Sequence record: MT129652.1
Direction: 5' to 3' (one strand)
From: Escherichia phage MN01
DNA: 64,000 nt
The notes below the pieces were generated by a model that was given only the letters and a program-made list of their open reading frames with translations, was not told where the DNA came from and made no database searches. Each line of letters begins with the position of its first letter. Positions within the stretch are counted from its first letter, which is position 1. Shown here one piece after another: positions 23,762 through 61,376 of this stretch. Both the position numbers and the translations under genes were made by a program.

Positions 23762-24580
23762 TTAAGAAATTCGTGATGCTGCGAGAGCAGACAAGTCCGC
23801 AAAGGACAGGGTAGGCTTGGTGCCTTTTTCTTCAACTGCTTCTGAAATGTAATTCAGTGCCGCAGCATCGTCTACATTTTTATTTATAGCGGCTTCGGTG
23901 ATTGGTTTGTCGGTGGCTTCTACCTGACCTTTAACCATTTCAACGATAGCGCCAATTTTGGTACCGAATGCATCAGAGTATTCCATGCCTTCTACCAGAG
24001 AACCAACTTTTTCTTTCTGAGATTCAGTCAGGTCTTTAGTTGCTTCAGTCAACGCAACTTCACGTTGGACATAATTGATATAAGCATCACGCTTAGAAAC
24101 TTCTTCGAACAGATTAGCGGTTTCTTCTTTCTGTTCAGCCAGTTCTTCCTGCATTTCTGCAACAACATCGACAGATTCTTCTGGAACAACAACGTTGTGC
24201 TCAACGAACAGTTCTTTCATGCCGGTGAACATGGATTCGAACAGGTCAGCTTTAATGCCACGGTCGACAGCCAGTTTATTTTCAGCAAGCCATTCTTTAG
24301 CAACGTGGTCCAGGAATTTAGCTGCAGATTCTTTCAGTTTTTTCTCTGCCTTTTCGTCGGCTTCTTCTTTATTCTTTTCGACTTCTTCTTCAGCTTTTTC
24401 AGCGATGGCGTGAATGTGAGATTCTGCCAGTTTGATGGCGTGTTGCTTGACGGTAGCTTCGAATACAGTGCCGAAGGTAGCTTTCGCTTCCGGGGACAAA
24501 TTAACTGATTCGAAAATACTATCGAGAGCAACGGAAGCATCGATATTCTGAGCTTCAGAAATGAGTTGTTCTTTAAGCAT
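23762..24580 (-). CDS. 22: prohead core scaffold protein gp22
   Basis: 272 aa, acidic coiled-coil-rich; T4 gp22 269 aa; synteny. Confidence 0.85.
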   Translation of the reverse strand: MLKEQLISEAQNIDASVALDSIFESVNLSPEAKATFGTVFEATVKQHAIKLAESHIHAIAEKAEEEVEKNKEEADEKAEKKLKESAAKFLDHVAKEWLAENKLAVDRGIKADLFESMFTGMKELFVEHNVVVPEESVDVVAEMQEELAEQKEETANLFEEVSKRDAYINYVQREVALTEATKDLTESQKEKVGSLVEGMEYSDAFGTKIGAIVEMVKGQVEATDKPITEAAINKNVDDAAALNYISEAVEEKGTKPTLSFADLSALAASRIS

Positions 24581-24608: not shown

Positions 24609-24616
24609 TTATTTAT
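24609..24616 (-). promoter_or_regulatory. late promoter for gene 22
   Basis: Plus-strand TATTTATA overlapping the gp21 stop. Confidence 0.55.
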
Positions 24617-25251
24617 AACGTCTTTAAAGCCTCTGCGAGAGCCATAAAGGCGTCATCGGCACTGGTATCGGCAACTGCCGTTTGTGATTCTGTAATCTGC
24701 TTTGGTTTGACCCAAGCGTCCGGAGCACTTGGCCCCCATACTGCATCTACTCCAACCGTCAATTTAAAACCTTCATTAACGATGCTATAACCTTTTGCTG
24801 ATTTAGTCAAGGAACCAAGTCCACGACTAGATACACCAGGAATCCAACCCGCTCTTATATTCGCAGCAAGTTTATCACCTGGGCCATGGTCGCCTTCGAT
24901 AATACGCGCGCGGCCATATACATCATTACCTTTCCACCACATTTCCTCGATAATAATTGCCGCCTGCATAGGGTCAACGTTTGCACGAGGTGGATGGTTT
25001 AATTCTCCAAGAGACTGCTTGGTTTCAACCTGTTCGGCGATATAGTCCGCAACGGCTTTTTCCAAAATATGTTTAGGATAAAGTCGTTTATTACGGTTAA
25101 CAACTTCAGCTTGTAGGAAAATACCTTCAATATAAAGTCCTGGCTTTAAACCGCTGCTGGAACCATCATGAGATTCCAACATCGGTACACCATCTTTAAT
25201 TTCGCCCGGTTGACCCCAGTGTTCGATTAGTAACTCTGGTTTCTGTTCCAT
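24613..25251 (-). CDS. 21: prohead core protease gp21
   Basis: 212 aa, same as T4 gp21; synteny. Confidence 0.85.
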   Translation of the reverse strand: MEQKPELLIEHWGQPGEIKDGVPMLESHDGSSSGLKPGLYIEGIFLQAEVVNRNKRLYPKHILEKAVADYIAEQVETKQSLGELNHPPRANVDPMQAAIIIEEMWWKGNDVYGRARIIEGDHGPGDKLAANIRAGWIPGVSSRGLGSLTKSAKGYSIVNEGFKLTVGVDAVWGPSAPDAWVKPKQITESQTAVADTSADDAFMALAEALKTL

Positions 25252-55282: not shown

Positions 55283-55615
55283 ATGAACCTCAAGACTTAT
55301 AACGAGTTTTTAGCTGAATCCGCCATCAATGAGACCAAATCAATTGATGATAGTGAAGGCTCTCTGAAATTTGGTTTAACCAAAAATGCAGATGGTGTTT
55401 TCTTTCAGATTGGTAATGAACGTTTTCAAACGTCCAAATATTCCAAAGCTGCAGTTGAAGCTGTCCTGAAATCTGGTGGCAAGTGGAAAGGCAAAGAAGG
55501 TACTAAAGAAATTGGTATCGCTGTTGACGGCGGTATGGCTTATTTTAAAATTGGCGATGAACAATTTATTATGTCTGCTCGCGGACGTAAAGAACTGGCA
55601 AAACTTTATAAATAA
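55283..55615 (+). CDS. internal-protein-like, capsid-targeting-sequence-bearing protein 1
   Basis: N-terminus MNLKTYNEFLAE|S resembles the T4 IP capsid targeting sequence with an L-x-E gp21-type cleavage site. Confidence 0.65.
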   Translation: MNLKTYNEFLAESAINETKSIDDSEGSLKFGLTKNADGVFFQIGNERFQTSKYSKAAVEAVLKSGGKWKGKEGTKEIGIAVDGGMAYFKIGDEQFIMSARGRKELAKLYK

Positions 55616-55623
55616 GGTTTCTT

Positions 55624-55896
55624 ATGAAAACTTTCAATGAATTTTTCAACGAGTCACAACTGAATGAAGAAGTAAAAATTAGTAAAGCAGTCAAAGCTAT
55701 GATTGACAATATCAATCACCTGTATAGCATTGACTTAACTGACCATATAACAATTGGTAACAAACGCAACTTTTTCGCGTTTGACATTTCAGAACTTGAC
55801 CAGAACCAAATTAATAACATTGAGCGTTTTGCCAATGACAAGGGTCTTCGCCATGAGACGGCTGGTTATAAAAAATATGCAATTTATCTAAAATAG
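55624..55896 (+). CDS. internal-protein-like, capsid-targeting-sequence-bearing protein 2
   Basis: N-terminus MKTFNEFFNE|S. Confidence 0.65.
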   Translation: MKTFNEFFNESQLNEEVKISKAVKAMIDNINHLYSIDLTDHITIGNKRNFFAFDISELDQNQINNIERFANDKGLRHETAGYKKYAIYLK

Positions 55897-55904
55897 GATT
55901 TCAA

Positions 55905-56147
55905 ATGAAAACTTATCAAACATTTATAACAGAATCTTCCCATGGCATGGAAGTTAAACTTGGTCAAGCCCTTGCTGAAGCAGAGCGCCTGTTTGCACGT
56001 ATCAAAGAACTTGCTGATTCAGTAGATGCATCATCTTTTAAAGGCGACCAGGGTAAAGTTAAAGCTCTCCTCGCTCTTTGTTCAGACGCCGGTGAAATTG
56101 CTAAGAACGGCACCAAGATGAAAAAACGTCTGGAAGACTTAAAATAA
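55905..56147 (+). CDS. internal-protein-like, capsid-targeting-sequence-bearing protein 3
   Basis: N-terminus MKTYQTFITE|S. Confidence 0.65.
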   Translation: MKTYQTFITESSHGMEVKLGQALAEAERLFARIKELADSVDASSFKGDQGKVKALLALCSDAGEIAKNGTKMKKRLEDLK

Positions 56148-56148
56148 A

Positions 56149-56184
56149 GTATACGCGATGGGATAACTGCAGTATAATTATCCC
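56149..56184 (+). promoter_or_regulatory. early promoter with stem-loop (PeSL-like)
   Basis: GTATAC -35, 18 nt spacer, TATAAT at 56173-56178 inside GGGATAA...TTATCCC inverted repeat; leader TCAACTACTGGAGG. Confidence 0.6.
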
Positions 56185-56203
56185 ATCAACTACTGGAGGC
56201 AAC

Positions 56204-56458
56204 ATGAAAACATATCAAGAATTTATTAACGAAGCCGCAGATGCAAAAGTTGAGTTTGCTTATGTTGGTTCCCCGCGGGGTAGTTTTTCTAATGAGGAAT
56301 TGCGCCGTTCACTAGACAACTTTATGCAGTTAAGTGCTGAAGTATCGCATGATGGTCGCTATGACATCGTTACCATTAAAGGTTCTGAAGACCTTATCAA
56401 AAAGTGGCACAAGCAGAAAGATGTTGAGATGCGTTACTATCGTATCCCTAAAAAATAA
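56204..56458 (+). CDS. internal-protein-like, capsid-targeting-sequence-bearing protein 4
   Basis: N-terminus MKTYQEFINE|A, almost identical to the T4 IPIII targeting sequence MKTYQEFIAE as recalled. Confidence 0.7.
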   Translation: MKTYQEFINEAADAKVEFAYVGSPRGSFSNEELRRSLDNFMQLSAEVSHDGRYDIVTIKGSEDLIKKWHKQKDVEMRYYRIPKK

Positions 56459-56493
56459 GTGTACTTTTAAATGGGATAGTGTATAATTATCCC
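56459..56493 (+). promoter_or_regulatory. early promoter with stem-loop (PeSL-like)
   Basis: GTGTAC -35, 17 nt spacer, TATAAT at 56482-56487 inside GGGATAG...TTATCCC; near-duplicate of the cassette at 56149. Confidence 0.6.
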
Positions 56494-56515
56494 GTCAACT
56501 ACTGAGGGTCAAAAA

Positions 56516-56737
56516 ATGAAAACGTATCAAGAATTTATTAACGAAGCTAAAATGCATGACGAATTGCCGATTCAATCTAAAACTTTTGATGGTACACTGA
56601 AGGATTTTAAAAAGTTACCAAATGATAAATTGGCAAAACTTACAGGTTCTGTATCTGAAACAGGTGGTAAGGTTACTTTCTCTGCCCGTGGTATTGTCAA
56701 CCTTAAAAAACTTTTGAAAGCCGTTGGTGCTGAATAA
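56516..56737 (+). CDS. internal-protein-like, capsid-targeting-sequence-bearing protein 5
   Basis: N-terminus MKTYQEFINE|A. Confidence 0.7.
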   Translation: MKTYQEFINEAKMHDELPIQSKTFDGTLKDFKKLPNDKLAKLTGSVSETGGKVTFSARGIVNLKKLLKAVGAE

Positions 56738-57372: not shown

Positions 57373-57845
57373 ATATCAAATTTGGACAGACCATCCCTAA
57401 AGGTTATGTGATTGAAATTGAAACCTGGGAAAATGATGGTGATAATTATAAAACCCAGACTGTATTTGGTGTAGAAGAACAAGAAATCCAACAGTACAAA
57501 TATATCCTGGAACTTTTCCATGGTTCGCATTGCAACAACCGCAACAAATGTGGTAATTCAGAATGGGATGTGGTTAAACACTTGGTTATCGCCCACATTG
57601 CATCTGGCGTAAAATCTGGCCAGTTGACTTATGAATTTTTGGATAAAGTTCTTGGTATTGCAGATTTGGAAGCCTTGTTGAATGACGATGAAGAAGCATA
57701 CTATTTGAATGAAGCCCTTACTGAGCTCCTTGGTATGGCTTGTGAATATGATGGCGATTTCATGCGTGTAATTTCGTATGTTAAACTATATATAATCGAA
57801 GAAGAAATCCAAATTCCATCTGTTAAAGCGCTTGATATGCTTTAA
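57369..57845 (+). CDS. hypothetical protein
   Basis: 158 aa ORF with ATGA coupling. Confidence 0.45.
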   Translation: MNIKFGQTIPKGYVIEIETWENDGDNYKTQTVFGVEEQEIQQYKYILELFHGSHCNNRNKCGNSEWDVVKHLVIAHIASGVKSGQLTYEFLDKVLGIADLEALLNDDEEAYYLNEALTELLGMACEYDGDFMRVISYVKLYIIEEEIQIPSVKALDML

Positions 57846-57965
57846 TAAAAACGCGTTATTATTAATAAGTACCCTCTATTACCAAAGGTTCTTCCCTCAA
57901 AGAACCTTTCATAATAGCATGTGCTATTAATCAAACTTACTTTACTTAATTTTACTTGAGGTGTT

Positions 57966-58235
57966 ATGTTAGTATTAAAATTAGCTTTTTACGACCCTAA
58001 AACAAAGACAACCACTACCAAACGTTGCTCTATCTCGTATGAGTGCCAATTTGGCGAAATTCAGCATCCAACGGGCGAAACCTTTATGTCAATTGGTTGT
58101 CCAACATTCAATAAAGTCAAATTAATCCCGTTGGTTAATACGGCGGCTTATCTGGTTGCACCAGAAGAAATGACTTATCATACAATTCAGCATATGGTTA
58201 AAGATGATAATGCTCCCGCTGGATTTGTAATTTAA
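57966..58235 (+). CDS. hypothetical Cys-containing small protein
   Basis: 89 aa ORF; GAGG RBS; ends 5 nt before the tRNA. Confidence 0.45.
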   Translation: MLVLKLAFYDPKTKTTTTKRCSISYECQFGEIQHPTGETFMSIGCPTFNKVKLIPLVNTAAYLVAPEEMTYHTIQHMVKDDNAPAGFVI

Positions 58236-58240
58236 TTTTA

Positions 58241-58316
58241 GGCCCTGTAGCTCAATTGGTTAGAGCATCCGGCTCATAACTGGCAGGTTTCCGGTTCAAG
58301 TCCGGATGGGGCCACC
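58241..58316 (+). tRNA. tRNA with CAU anticodon (Ile-lysidine type or Met)
   Basis: Cloverleaf by eye: acceptor GGCCCTG/TGGGGCC, D-arm GCTC-AATTGGTTA-GAGC, T-arm TCCGG-TTCAAGT-CCGGA, anticodon loop CTCATAA; anticodon stem imperfect. Confidence 0.6.
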
Positions 58317-58408: not shown

Positions 58409-58648
58409 ATGGTTATTAGTGAATCATATGCAGTTATGGATATAACCAATAACGAGCTGGTTTATAGCTTTGATGAGTTTGATGAAAATGATAAACAAGT
58501 TCCATGGTTTGCATTAACTGCTCCACCTGAGCATAATAAATATCTAAGTTTCCCGACTCGCAGATTAGCAACAAATTTTATGGAATTCAATGACCTTGAT
58601 TCCAATTATAAGGTTGTTAAAGTCAAATTAGCTATTACAATTGAATGA
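58409..58648 (+). CDS. hypothetical small acidic protein
   Basis: 79 aa ORF from ATG at 58409. Confidence 0.4.
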   Translation: MVISESYAVMDITNNELVYSFDEFDENDKQVPWFALTAPPEHNKYLSFPTRRLATNFMEFNDLDSNYKVVKVKLAITIE

Positions 58649-58649
58649 G

Positions 58650-58845
58650 AAACCGGGTCGCTACCGGTAAGTCGTCGGACTGAAGTTCCCTGTTTAAGGA
58701 CTGGCATCAATAAATCTTTACGATTTGTTGATGCCCCCTTATATCACAGCTGAAACGGCGCACCCTTTTACGGAGTTTTTCCAGAGCGGGCGGTGCGCCC
58801 GGTAGTATGAGAAATCCGAGCGGATGGTGCATCCGGTACTATGGA
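58650..58845 (+). ncRNA. candidate small stable RNA(s) downstream of the tRNAs (compare T4 rnaC/rnaD)
   Basis: About 200 nt without convincing ORF, several GC-rich hairpins (GGCATCAA/TTGATGCC, GGCGCACC/GGTGCGCC, CCGGATGGTGCATCCGG), directly after the tRNA genes. Confidence 0.35.
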
Positions 58846-58846
58846 A

Positions 58847-58854
58847 TATAAATA
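58847..58854 (+). promoter_or_regulatory. late promoter TATAAATA
   Basis: Exact TATAAATA about 18 nt upstream of ATG at 58873. Confidence 0.55.
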
Positions 58855-58872
58855 TTAACAACAACCCTAATA

Positions 58873-59268
58873 ATGGAAAACAAAATGCTTACATATGCAG
58901 AATTTTTAAATCGCAATACCATCACCGAATCCGTACTGACTGAAGCTGGTAAATTTTCTTTAGTGGCTCCAGAAAAAGCCGGTGTTTCAATTGGTGACCG
59001 TGTTATGTTCAAGAAACCAGTTAATGGAGTTTCTTGGGGTATCGTAACTGGGTTTGGCATCAAAGCTAAAGACGTTAAAAATGCCGCGGCACCTGGTGCT
59101 AAACTAGCTGGTTCCAAAGTTTCAACTTATATGGTTCGCCCTAAACAGTCTCCGGGTAATGGTGCTGCTGACTGGGTTGGCGCTCCAATCGAAATCGCTC
59201 GTGATAAATTCTTGAACATCACTGACCGTGCCAACGAACGCGCTGCAATGGCGTTCGCTCGCGGATAA
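58873..59268 (+). CDS. candidate internal (head) protein with divergent targeting-like N-terminus
   Basis: Late promoter; N-terminus MENKMLTYAEFLNRNTITE|S contains an I-x-E site; alternative start at 58885. Confidence 0.45.
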   Translation: MENKMLTYAEFLNRNTITESVLTEAGKFSLVAPEKAGVSIGDRVMFKKPVNGVSWGIVTGFGIKAKDVKNAAAPGAKLAGSKVSTYMVRPKQSPGNGAADWVGAPIEIARDKFLNITDRANERAAMAFARG

Positions 59269-59305
59269 GAACACTTGCCTTGCAGGTGGAACCCCGACAA
59301 GGTAT

Positions 59306-59336
59306 AGCCCCTTCCGAAAGGTTGGGGCTTTTTTTA
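59306..59336 (+). terminator. rho-independent terminator
   Basis: AGCCCC...GGGGCT hairpin followed by TTTTTTT. Confidence 0.7.
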
Positions 59337-59358
59337 TAAATCAACTAAAGAGAAACGT

Positions 59359-59913
59359 ATGAAACTGTTAAAATATTTGAGTTGGATTCTGTTAGTTCCA
59401 CTGGATTTTATCTCCATGATTCTGGCCGTTATCCTGGCACCATTTGTAGTCCCATTCCATAATAAAAAGACTGGTAAACTTCCGTTCGGGTTTGATTGGA
59501 TGATGACTTATGATAATCCGATTGATGGCGACCGGGGTCATGTCAAACGTTGGTCAAAAATCCGAAAATGGCCATTAGGTGTTTACTTCCAACGAGTAGC
59601 TTGGCTCTGGCGAAACAAAGCATACAATTTTGCTTACCACAAGCTCGGTCGTGATTGCAATTCAGAATTCCATTATAAAGGCAATCCTGATGTTGAATCC
59701 GGCTCCCCGGATAAAGCTCATCACGGATGGCTCTGGATGTGGACGGATAATGCCTGGGGTGTTTTTGCTTCTGTTCCTTATCTTAAGGTCGGTGGAATCA
59801 CCTTTTATCTGCGCGTTTATTGTGGCTGGAAGCTCAAGAGTCTTCTGTCCCGACCAATCCCTAAGGCTATGCTCGCCTTTCATATAAATCCGTTCCGCTT
59901 TTATAAGAACTAA
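59359..59913 (+). CDS. membrane-anchored hypothetical protein (N-terminal hydrophobic helix, Trp-rich domain)
   Basis: 184 aa ORF bracketed by two terminators. Confidence 0.5.
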   Translation: MKLLKYLSWILLVPLDFISMILAVILAPFVVPFHNKKTGKLPFGFDWMMTYDNPIDGDRGHVKRWSKIRKWPLGVYFQRVAWLWRNKAYNFAYHKLGRDCNSEFHYKGNPDVESGSPDKAHHGWLWMWTDNAWGVFASVPYLKVGGITFYLRVYCGWKLKSLLSRPIPKAMLAFHINPFRFYKN

Positions 59914-59973: not shown

Positions 59974-60020
59974 GTGTACATCCAGATTGACTGGATGCAT
60001 AATGATTCCATACTGAGTTA
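59974..60020 (+). promoter_or_regulatory. early promoter with spacer stem-loop plus conserved leader
   Basis: GTGTAC -35, CATCCAG...CTGGATG hairpin in the spacer, CATAAT -10, GATTCCATACTGAGTTA leader. Confidence 0.6.
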
Positions 60021-60054
60021 CACACTGAATCAAACAAAACTTTGGAGAAATAAA

Positions 60055-60480
60055 ATGAACTTCCTGACCCTGACTTCTGCATTCTCTGTTACCCGCATCA
60101 CTAACAAAATGGTTGCCGACGAAGTATGTGAAATCTGCATTCGTGAAGATGCACTTATTCATCTGACTTCAACCCAGATTGTTGCCATCGCCAAGTCCCT
60201 TAATTCTGAACTGAAGGTAAACACCAAACAGTCAAAAGAATCTATCATTGAATTAATCCAAGCTGAAATGATTGAATTCCCAATTGAAGAAGTTAAAGAA
60301 GAAAAAATCCAGTCCAAATCTGGTAATGCTCGTGACATTTGCTTCCAGGCATTTGCAGAAATTGATATGGCAGATGGTGCAGCTCGTCGCGCCCTGATTG
60401 ATGTTCTGGTTAACACCCATGATATCAAAAAGACTGTTGTTCAGTCATATGCTTCCAACTTCCGCAAAGCTCAAAAATAA
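60055..60480 (+). CDS. hypothetical early protein sharing a C-terminal module with the ORF at 60933
   Basis: 141 aa; C-terminal motif DGAARRALIDVLV...VQSYASNFRK. Confidence 0.5.
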   Translation: MNFLTLTSAFSVTRITNKMVADEVCEICIREDALIHLTSTQIVAIAKSLNSELKVNTKQSKESIIELIQAEMIEFPIEEVKEEKIQSKSGNARDICFQAFAEIDMADGAARRALIDVLVNTHDIKKTVVQSYASNFRKAQK

Positions 60481-60932: not shown

Positions 60933-61376
60933 ATGAAAACTTCAAAACTGGTTAAGTACGTTAAACTGGCATTAAACAACTCTTCTGAAGCTGAAGCACA
61001 ATCCGCAGCGCGTATGTTCTTCAAACGTCTGACAGCTGAAGGTATTTCATTTAACCCGGCAGTATTTGGTATCACTCGTGGCGAAGCTGCTAAACTGGCA
61101 ACTCTGGCAGGTAAAATTTTTAAAGGTCTGAATGATGGACAGGTTAAACCAGAAGTTAAACCTACTCCTAAAGCTGAACCAAAAGCTGAACGTAAGGCAC
61201 CTAAACGCTCCGGTATGAGCAACAAAGATTTATGCTATGATATGTTCAAAACTGTTAATATGTCTAATGGTGCTGCTCGCAGAGCTGTTATTGATATGAT
61301 TGTGCGTGAGTTTGGATTCAACAAAGCATCAGTTCAGTCTTATGCTTCCAACTTCCGCAAAGAATTTGAAATTTAA
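60933..61376 (+). CDS. hypothetical early protein, Lys/Ala-rich linker, shared C-terminal module
   Basis: 147 aa; C-terminal motif NGAARRAVIDMIV...VQSYASNFRK paralogous to the ORF at 60055. Confidence 0.5.
   Translation: MKTSKLVKYVKLALNNSSEAEAQSAARMFFKRLTAEGISFNPAVFGITRGEAAKLATLAGKIFKGLNDGQVKPEVKPTPKAEPKAERKAPKRSGMSNKDLCYDMFKTVNMSNGAARRAVIDMIVREFGFNKASVQSYASNFRKEFEI

Follow-up and report, generated by a model that had tools for sequence, protein, structure and literature searches.

Downstream of the tRNA genes of Escherichia phage MN01 lies a small ORF which has a predicted late promoter of its own and an N-terminus resembling the capsid targeting sequence (CTS) of T4-type internal proteins (IPs), and this raises the question whether an additional protein of the phage head is encoded at this locus. 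The stretch of DNA that was analyzed, called the window here, comprises 64,000 nt of record MT129652.1 (one strand, 5′ to 3′). It belongs to a T4-like coliphage of the genus Gaprivervirus (VR20/SP18/UPEC07 group), and the region 58640-59360 shows 98% identity to the phages UPEC07 and TH55. In every annotated record inspected the ORF is called a hypothetical protein (VR20_145 in VR20, QUL77609). An earlier note on this DNA had read it as a further CTS-bearing internal protein. This reading found support in the specificity of the motif, in three homologues which also bear a CTS, and in a conserved ATAAATA upstream of the gene. Judged from these features, the region 58885-59268 quite probably encodes a late-expressed, CTS-targeted and gp21-processed internal head protein of the T4 type.

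On the plus strand the gene order of the region starts with gp3, gp1, 57A, and 57B, followed by five tandem small CTS ORFs (starting at 55283, 55624, 55905, 56204, and 56516), by trna.4, trna.3 and other small ORFs, and by the genes for tRNA-Met (58241) and tRNA-Arg (58317). Behind tRNA-Arg, a 79-aa ORF, a stable-RNA segment, the studied ORF, and a DUF7338 gene (59359-59913) are located. The prohead protease gp21 and the scaffold core protein gp22, the machinery which CTS proteins need, are both encoded within the window (Table 1), and gp55, gp33, Alt, gp67, and gp68 are present in the VR20 genome.

Some details of the neighborhood differ between phages or records. The tRNA at 58241-58316 has the anticodon CAT and was classified as tRNA-Met by ARAGORN and in VR20, and as tRNA-Ile2 (cat) in the EAWsc9 record. 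The 79-aa ORF (58409-58648, phrog_33509) separates tRNA-Arg from the first stable RNA, whereas in Tequatrovirus the stable RNA follows directly 3′ of tRNA-Arg. The product of the DUF7338 gene is labelled "holin," "amidase-6 domain" or hypothetical, depending on the record. Further downstream, the ORFs 59974-60480 and 60933-61376 are paralogues with the common C-terminal motif GAARRA[LV]ID...VQSYASNFRK.

The ORF 58885-59268 is a real gene under purifying selection, since 40 of the 41 sites that vary among 10 copies of its 384 nt lie at codon position 3 and only one amino-acid change, V17I, was found. If the ORF had arisen by chance within a spacer of the RNA operon that codes for nothing, its hypothetical status in all records and the lack of a match in Pfam, PHROG, and NCBIfam would be understandable. 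However, 40 of the 41 substitutions are synonymous third-position changes, a pattern which refutes this explanation, and homologues of about 40% identity keep the same length and motifs; the chance ORF was rejected and retains practically no likelihood.

The start codon had to be corrected. According to the earlier note, a 131-aa ORF begins 18 nt downstream of the late promoter TATAAATA. This longer ORF (58873-59268) does exist in the window, but its start is not the conserved one. Positions 58877-58880 show an A4/A5 length polymorphism: 13 of 15 related phage records have an extra A, by which ATG 58873 loses its frame with the gene, and this frame break was checked directly in 8 copies. In the 13 A5 records the in-frame codons upstream read TAA TAA TGG AAA AAC AAA ATG. 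In the window, UPEC07 and TH55, the only sequences with ATG 58873 in frame, it would put MENK before the CTS. ATG 58873 was rejected as the start because its frame is broken in most relatives, and ATG 58885 is therefore taken as the conserved start of a protein of 127 aa. It is preceded by a weak GGA 7 nt upstream and was also picked by the annotators of VR20 and by the gene callers behind the sequences P0001 and P0002.

Table 1. Features of the locus and of related genes with the evidence for each (positions refer to the window unless stated otherwise).
Feature	Position	Strand	Evidence and remarks
gp22 scaffold core protein	23765-24580	-	tblastn with VR20 gp22, 98.5% identity
gp21 prohead protease	24616-25251	-	tblastn with VR20 gp21, 100% identity
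First stable RNA of the tRNA operon (T4 rnaC/rnaD-type)	58649-58764	+	95% identity over 121 nt to the Tequatrovirus segment after tRNA-Arg
Variable cassette of 505 bp (structured leader segment, late promoter, ORF)	58765-59269	+	alignment with RZ and SP18
Pair of short GUG-loop hairpins, GC-rich, upstream of the promoter	58787-58801 and 58821-58835	+	RNA fold, weakly significant (z = -1.7)
T4-type late promoter TATAAATA (gp55-dependent)	58847-58854	+	exact match; predicted 5′ end at about 58860 (inferred)
CDS, 127 aa plus stop (corrected start)	58885-59268	+	substitution pattern; frame of the upstream ATG broken in relatives
Predicted propeptide with CTS, residues 1-15 (MLTYAEFLNRNTITE)	58885-58929	+	motif specificity; ip5-like layout
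Predicted mature protein, 112 aa (107 aa with cleavage at E20)	58930-59265	+	basic; SH3-like beta-barrel and C-terminal helix predicted
Intrinsic terminator: two hairpins (59276-59304, 59306-59329) and U-run (59329-59335)	59276-59335	+	fold and conservation
Unannotated CTS ORFs	VR20 (KP007360.1): 57723-57986, 71854-72132, 72777-73109; window: 55283, 56204		N-terminal CTS

The CTS of T4 is MKTYQEFIAE. Compared to this sequence, the MLTYAEFL of the ORF is identical in M1, T3, Y4, E6, and F7, and L8 is a conservative exchange. Residues 8-10 are L-N-R and form no cleavage motif, as residue 10 is Arg and not Glu. As a whole, the N-terminus reads MLTYAEFLNRNTITE/SVLTE/A and contains an [IL]-T-E site twice, at residues 13-15 and again at 18-20, where it ends at position 58944 (E20). 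By extrapolation from this sequence, cleavage by gp21 is predicted after E15 (I-T-E) and/or E20 (L-T-E) and not after residue 10, since the latter is Arg rather than Glu. In the T4 protein IPIII, residues 4 and 7 of the CTS mainly carry the targeting and residues 8 and 10 the processing; targeting is still possible with a non-cleavable residue 10, and the propeptides of IPs comprise 10-19 residues (PMC9026906). The earlier description of a degenerate targeting sequence with an I-x-E site was supported as to the CTS and to the I-T-E at residues 13-15, but "degenerate" does not hold, as the match to the CTS is better when the protein is read from 58885.

The specificity of this N-terminus was assessed with the CTS core motif [TS][YF]x[ETQ]F[ILMFV], which was searched in the six-frame translation of the window. 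Ten matches were obtained. Six of them are the five IP genes and the ORF, all directly behind the initiator Met (at residue 3 in the ORF and in four of the five IP genes, at residue 5 in the fifth), and the other four lie in non-coding frames. The whole VR20 genome (170 kb) yielded 19 matches, 10 of them not N-terminal and 9 at the N-termini of small ORFs. The N-terminal matches are confined to eight ORFs of the two IP loci (including ip5, ip6, ip7, ip10, and three unannotated ones) and to VR20_145. With a background of about 3e-5 per position, the chance that any of the approximately 290 genes has the motif at residue 3 is below 1%. At the level of sequence, the N-terminus of the ORF has both the CTS and the [LI]-x-E motif which serve as sequence criteria for internal proteins of the T4 type.

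In addition, several ORFs annotated as "hypothetical" in both Ip loci of VR20 and UPEC07 start with a canonical CTS (MKTYQEFITE, MKTYQEFINE, MNIKTYNEFLAE). Going by this start, such ORFs (Table 1) are probably internal proteins too.

Homologues of the ORF are rare. Word-indexed searches returned near-identical copies only, and tblastn against 50,697 phage records gave 15 records with identities of 98.5% or more, almost all of them classified as Gaprivervirus. An exhaustive HMMER scan of 1.84 billion representatives revealed two distant relatives, to which a profile search added a third, whereas searches of IMG/VR and metagenome contigs found VR20 and one contig with an identical domain, and no further relatives. 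The family consists of the 15 near-identical phage records and three metagenomic sequences; it is so small that its conservation rests on four lineages. The distant homologues P0003 (202 aa), P0004 (125 aa), and P0005 (134 aa) are 38-46% identical over the C-terminal domain, and their N-termini, as listed, are MYTFKEFLVE/SELDLITE/A, MKSFKEFMLSE/K, and MLTYNEFLEE/KSGNNLTE/A. The linker behind the CTS differs freely among the homologues, and in P0003 (contig L008, 1994-2602) the CTS and the conserved domain are separated by an additional module of about 85 aa, as if the targeting signal stayed constant while the cargo domains behind it were shuffled. Free linker and additional module are in line with a modular construction of CTS and cargo, as one would expect for internal proteins.

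The contigs of the homologues are T4-like, and Pfam families of T4 accessory genes were found on neighboring ORFs. Upstream of the homologue, tRNA genes are found in L008 and L009, in the latter a tRNA-Arg(tct) gene followed by a small ORF and a stable-RNA-like stretch with the sequence CCAGAGCGGGCGGTGC. A hairpin with a T-run is located 3′ of the homologue in L007 and L009, and the one in L009 resembles that of the window. The ORF at 1121-1564 of contig L007, which lies 3′ of the P0004 gene, is a homologue of the paralogues 59974-60480 and 60933-61376 of the window, so that a loose synteny reaches downstream of the ORF.

The internal proteins of T-even phages share the CTS only and are thought to be diverse anti-restriction proteins (PMC3012670). 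Their genes are recognized by the signal sequence, and two Ip loci have been described; the T4 proteins Ip1, Ip2, and Ip3 are inhibitors of GmrSD type IV restriction enzymes, each of a different one (PMC12373910). The small, non-essential T4 protein IPI (Ip1) has a CTS of the form MxTYxEF[IL], as has the ORF. Its propeptide of 19 residues, compared to the 15-20 predicted for the ORF, is likewise longer than 10 residues and ends in an [LI]-x-E gp21 site, which in the ORF is a predicted one. Both genes adjoin a tRNA gene cluster in a hypervariable region, but the IPI gene is located between 57B and the tRNAs and the ORF downstream of the tRNAs and the stable RNA. Both mature domains are compact and of mixed beta/alpha type (in the ORF by prediction), but there is no sequence similarity or detectable fold similarity between them, and E10 is replaced by Arg in the ORF. 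The mature form IPI∗ inhibits the GmrSD of strain CT596.

The layout of the ORF is found again in Ip5 of T6, VR7, and VR20 (VR20_122, annotated in VR20 as similar to T6 Ip5), which has the 15-residue propeptide MKTYNEFLTVTTLNE/A. Both share M-x-T-Y-x-E-F-L, the lack of Glu10 and an [LI]-x-E at residues 13-15, and 8 of the 15 residues are identical. However, the mature domains are unrelated and ip5 belongs to the e/denV Ip locus. As ip5 has the same layout without E10, the seemingly degenerate layout of the ORF is an existing variant among IPs.

The T4 proteins Ip2 and Ip3 (IPII, IPIII), with which the earlier note had asked for a comparison, are CTS-bearing, packaged, and coinjected with the DNA. 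The ORF resembles them in the CTS and, by prediction, in packaging and injection, but no homology was found, and in Ip2 and Ip3 the CTS has 10 residues, is cut after E10, and belongs to genes at another locus.

The five tandem IP genes of the window (55283-56737; 110, 90, 80, 84, and 73 aa) have the CTS, the small size, and the strand in common with the ORF, whereas similarity is limited to the first 15-20 residues. They are located in the canonical 57B-proximal Ip locus behind stem-loops resembling early promoters, whereas the ORF has a well-placed exact late promoter. The stem-loops lie in the spacers 56160-56190 and 56470-56500 (GGGATA...TATCCC) and enclose GTATAAT; we take them to resemble the "promoter-early stem-loop" cassettes of T4-type hyperplastic regions.

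The predicted mature protein has a pI of 10.1-10.3, and all homologues are basic as well. With an alignment of five sequences, AF2 gave a model of moderate confidence (pLDDT 70.6, pTM 0.63), in which residues 1-21 are disordered or of low confidence, except for a short helix at 4-10, and are followed by five strands and a C-terminal helix; on the single sequence the prediction was useless (pLDDT 36). The best-conserved stretch is a loop with the pattern KN-x-x-AP-x-x-x-x-AGSKV. The predicted fold resembles KOW, Tudor, and SH3-like binders of nucleic acids or proteins. No useful Pfam, PHROG or NCBIfam match was obtained for the protein and its homologues, the only NCBIfam match being one of P0003 far below the cutoff, and no PDB sequence reached an E below 0.5 in a profile search. 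The mature domain showed no homology or fold match to any characterized IP or anti-defense protein. In a phmmer comparison with 9 IPs the alignments were mostly N-terminal, covering the first 15-20 residues, and none was significant; a homology of the mature domain to other IPs was rejected.

An alternative, with which the resemblance of the fold to nucleic-acid and protein binders would agree, is that the ORF does encode a late protein, but one that stays out of the head. Its CTS-like N-terminus would then be a relic, for example of a recombination with an ip gene, or serve another purpose, and the barrel would act in the producing cell, for example in nucleic-acid binding. The absence of the canonical E10 and the position of the gene outside the two known Ip loci (57B-tRNA, which ends about 2.1 kb upstream of it, and e/denV, at a distance of about 10 kb) fit this explanation. 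However, a relic is unlikely to be kept in four lineages at about 40% identity while the linker changes freely, and the targeting residues Y4/F4 and F7 are retained in all four. The lack of E10 is shared by the annotated internal protein gene ip5, and in T4 a non-cleavable residue 10 still permits targeting (PMC9026906). The location is a habit of the IP family and not a defining property. A non-packaged protein seems unlikely on these grounds, and the ORF is most likely, as far as its sequence tells, a CTS-bearing internal protein at a third locus with a cargo domain matching no known family. A proteomic study of VR20-type virions covering the protein was not found in a literature search.

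The exact late promoter motif claimed for this locus was confirmed. The window contains 20 copies of TATAAATA, whereas 5.3 ± 2.5 are expected, and none of 100 shuffled sequences reached 20. About half of the copies are followed, after 17-29 nt, by a long ORF that has a Shine-Dalgarno sequence, which matches the expectation for real late promoters. The copy at 58847 is the sole exact one on the plus strand between 55615 and 64000; its spacing of 30 nt to ATG 58885 is just above the 17-29 nt of the other late genes in the window. Apart from the length of the A-run, the 60 nt upstream of this ATG carry no substitution in the 10 aligned copies, whereas 31% of the third positions are variable, which indicates that the promoter and the leader are constrained too. 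The leader of the late transcript is predicted to be unstructured.

When the upstream regions of the ORF and its three homologues were aligned, ATAAATA appeared as an invariant island in otherwise diverged sequences. The ATG follows it after 30 nt in the window, and after 28, 29, and 34 nt in the three homologues. Counting both strands, this heptamer is present only once in L007 (1.8 kb) and in L008 (9 kb). The first base of the promoter is T in the window only and A, G, and A in the homologues, which raises some doubt about the strength of the promoter in those phages. Late expression of the ORF seems to be supported by this exact, invariant motif and its conservation in the homologues.

Further upstream in the cassette, a weakly significant fold predicts two short hairpins with GUG loops (Table 1). 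The first shows a compensatory exchange of G-C to A-U in UPEC07 and EAWsc9 (G58790A with C58798T), and its 5′ half is the sequence CCAGAGCGGGCGGTGC that recurs upstream of the homologue in L009 (2906-2921). The hairpins may serve in RNA processing or be what is left of a former RNA gene.

The first stable RNA, which matches about 500 phage records and has no family in Rfam, forms the left flank of the cassette. Homology with RZ and SP18 breaks off after GCGCACC (58764) and resumes at AACACTTGCC (59270). In between, the cassette consists of an 80-nt segment with the two GUG-loop hairpins, followed by promoter and ORF. RZ, SP18, and a Tequatrovirus have about 150 nt at this place, which end in the tRNA-like sequence GGTTCGAATCCCGG; for this second stable RNA, the sequences of SP18 (L003, 1626-1770), RZ (L004), and the Tequatrovirus (L006, 1622-1768) were compared. 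The T4-type arrangement in these phages is tRNA-Arg, stable RNA 1, stable RNA 2, a conserved hairpin region, and a terminator. In the alignment, the cassette is seen to replace the second T4-type stable RNA in the lineage of the window.

The earlier note had also placed a strong terminator behind the ORF and regarded the gene as an isolated late unit. The former was verified by the hairpin 59306-59329 with its T-run: the region 59269-59345 folds with -27.3 kcal/mol (z = -3.1), and none of 200 shuffled sequences folded as well. It was not listed by a scan for consensus terminators, probably due to a 2x2 internal loop in the stem. The latter holds only in part: the gene has a predicted late promoter of its own, but the terminator is common to the tRNA/stable-RNA operon, which it closes, and is conserved in phages with and without the ORF, including a Tequatrovirus. 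Since it is inherited from the RNA operon, early or middle read-through could express the ORF as well.

From this arrangement a second alternative arises, in which the ORF is an early or middle gene in the distal part of the tRNA/stable-RNA operon and TATAAATA is an AT-rich octamer present by chance. In favor of it, the ORF is flanked by a stable RNA on one side and on the other by the terminator of the operon, which phages lacking the ORF have too. Moreover, another exact TATAAATA, at 55607, may have no function, as it reaches into the 3′ end of the ORF before it and leaves only 9 nt to the following ATG, which hints at chance copies. On the other hand, with about 5 chance copies per 128 kb of both strands, only about 8e-4 would be expected within any 20-nt slot in front of a gene, the motif at 58847 is invariant in 10 aligned sequences, and three diverged loci have retained ATAAATA at a distance of 28-34 nt, two of them as a single copy. 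Read-through and a late promoter can also coexist. An operon gene without a late promoter of its own is very unlikely based on these data, and the late expression of an internal protein gene remains the preferred reading.

A near match to the promoter, TATAAATC (7/8), is located at 59335-59342, where it overlaps the final T of the T-run of the terminator, 16 nt before the DUF7338 gene. VR20 and TH40 have an exact TATAAATA at this place, and an exact copy is also found 3′ of the terminator in a Tequatrovirus (L006). Because TATAAATA abuts the terminator in all of these, the late promoter at this place looks ancestral.

For the internal protein the following course can be proposed. That the gene is transcribed late, that its product is packaged, where this is cut, that it is injected and, most of all, that it acts against a host defense is what we infer. 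Late in infection, RNA polymerase with gp55 would start at TATAAATA 58847 and produce a short transcript with an unstructured leader that ends at about 59335. The CTS of the 127-aa product (M-L-T-Y-A-E-F-L, with Y4 and F7) would direct the protein to the scaffold core formed by gp22 in the prohead, where the gp21 protease would remove the propeptide after E15 and/or E20. The basic mature protein of 107-112 aa, presumably a small beta-barrel with a helix, would stay with the packaged DNA and be injected with it. By analogy with T4 Ip1-3, it is reasonable to suppose that the injected protein then disables a host defense at the start of infection.

The Gapriverviruses are without known enzymes of hmC synthesis but keep Alc, DenB, and gp56 (PMC8056088); the host defense relevant to them may therefore differ from the targets of Ip2 and Ip3. 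A wider interpretation, which we put forward only tentatively, is that the ORF and its homologues form a new family of injected anti-defense effectors. It would be characterized by a basic SH3-like barrel with the KN-x-x-AP...AGSKV loop, would have given rise to a third Ip locus by an ip cassette replacing a stable RNA, and would counter a defense relevant for Gapriverviruses, its patchy spread being the mark of an arms race. If this were true, the patchiness of the gene, which is present in 15 Gaprivervirus records, whereas SP18 and RZ keep the stable RNA, would be explained.

The gain from this locus is incremental, in that a known class is extended and no new mechanism is revealed. The ORF has been hypothetical in the records inspected and lies outside the loci where ip genes are normally sought, and one of the two T4-type stable RNAs is replaced here in nature by a protein-coding cassette. 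Natural phages with the cassette (VR20, UPEC07) and without it (SP18, RZ) exist, which makes a comparison of host ranges easy. Given that T4 Ip1, Ip2, and Ip3 all inhibit GmrSD enzymes specifically, each a different one (PMC12373910), any additional protein with a CTS, such as the one predicted here, is at once a candidate inhibitor of some host defense.
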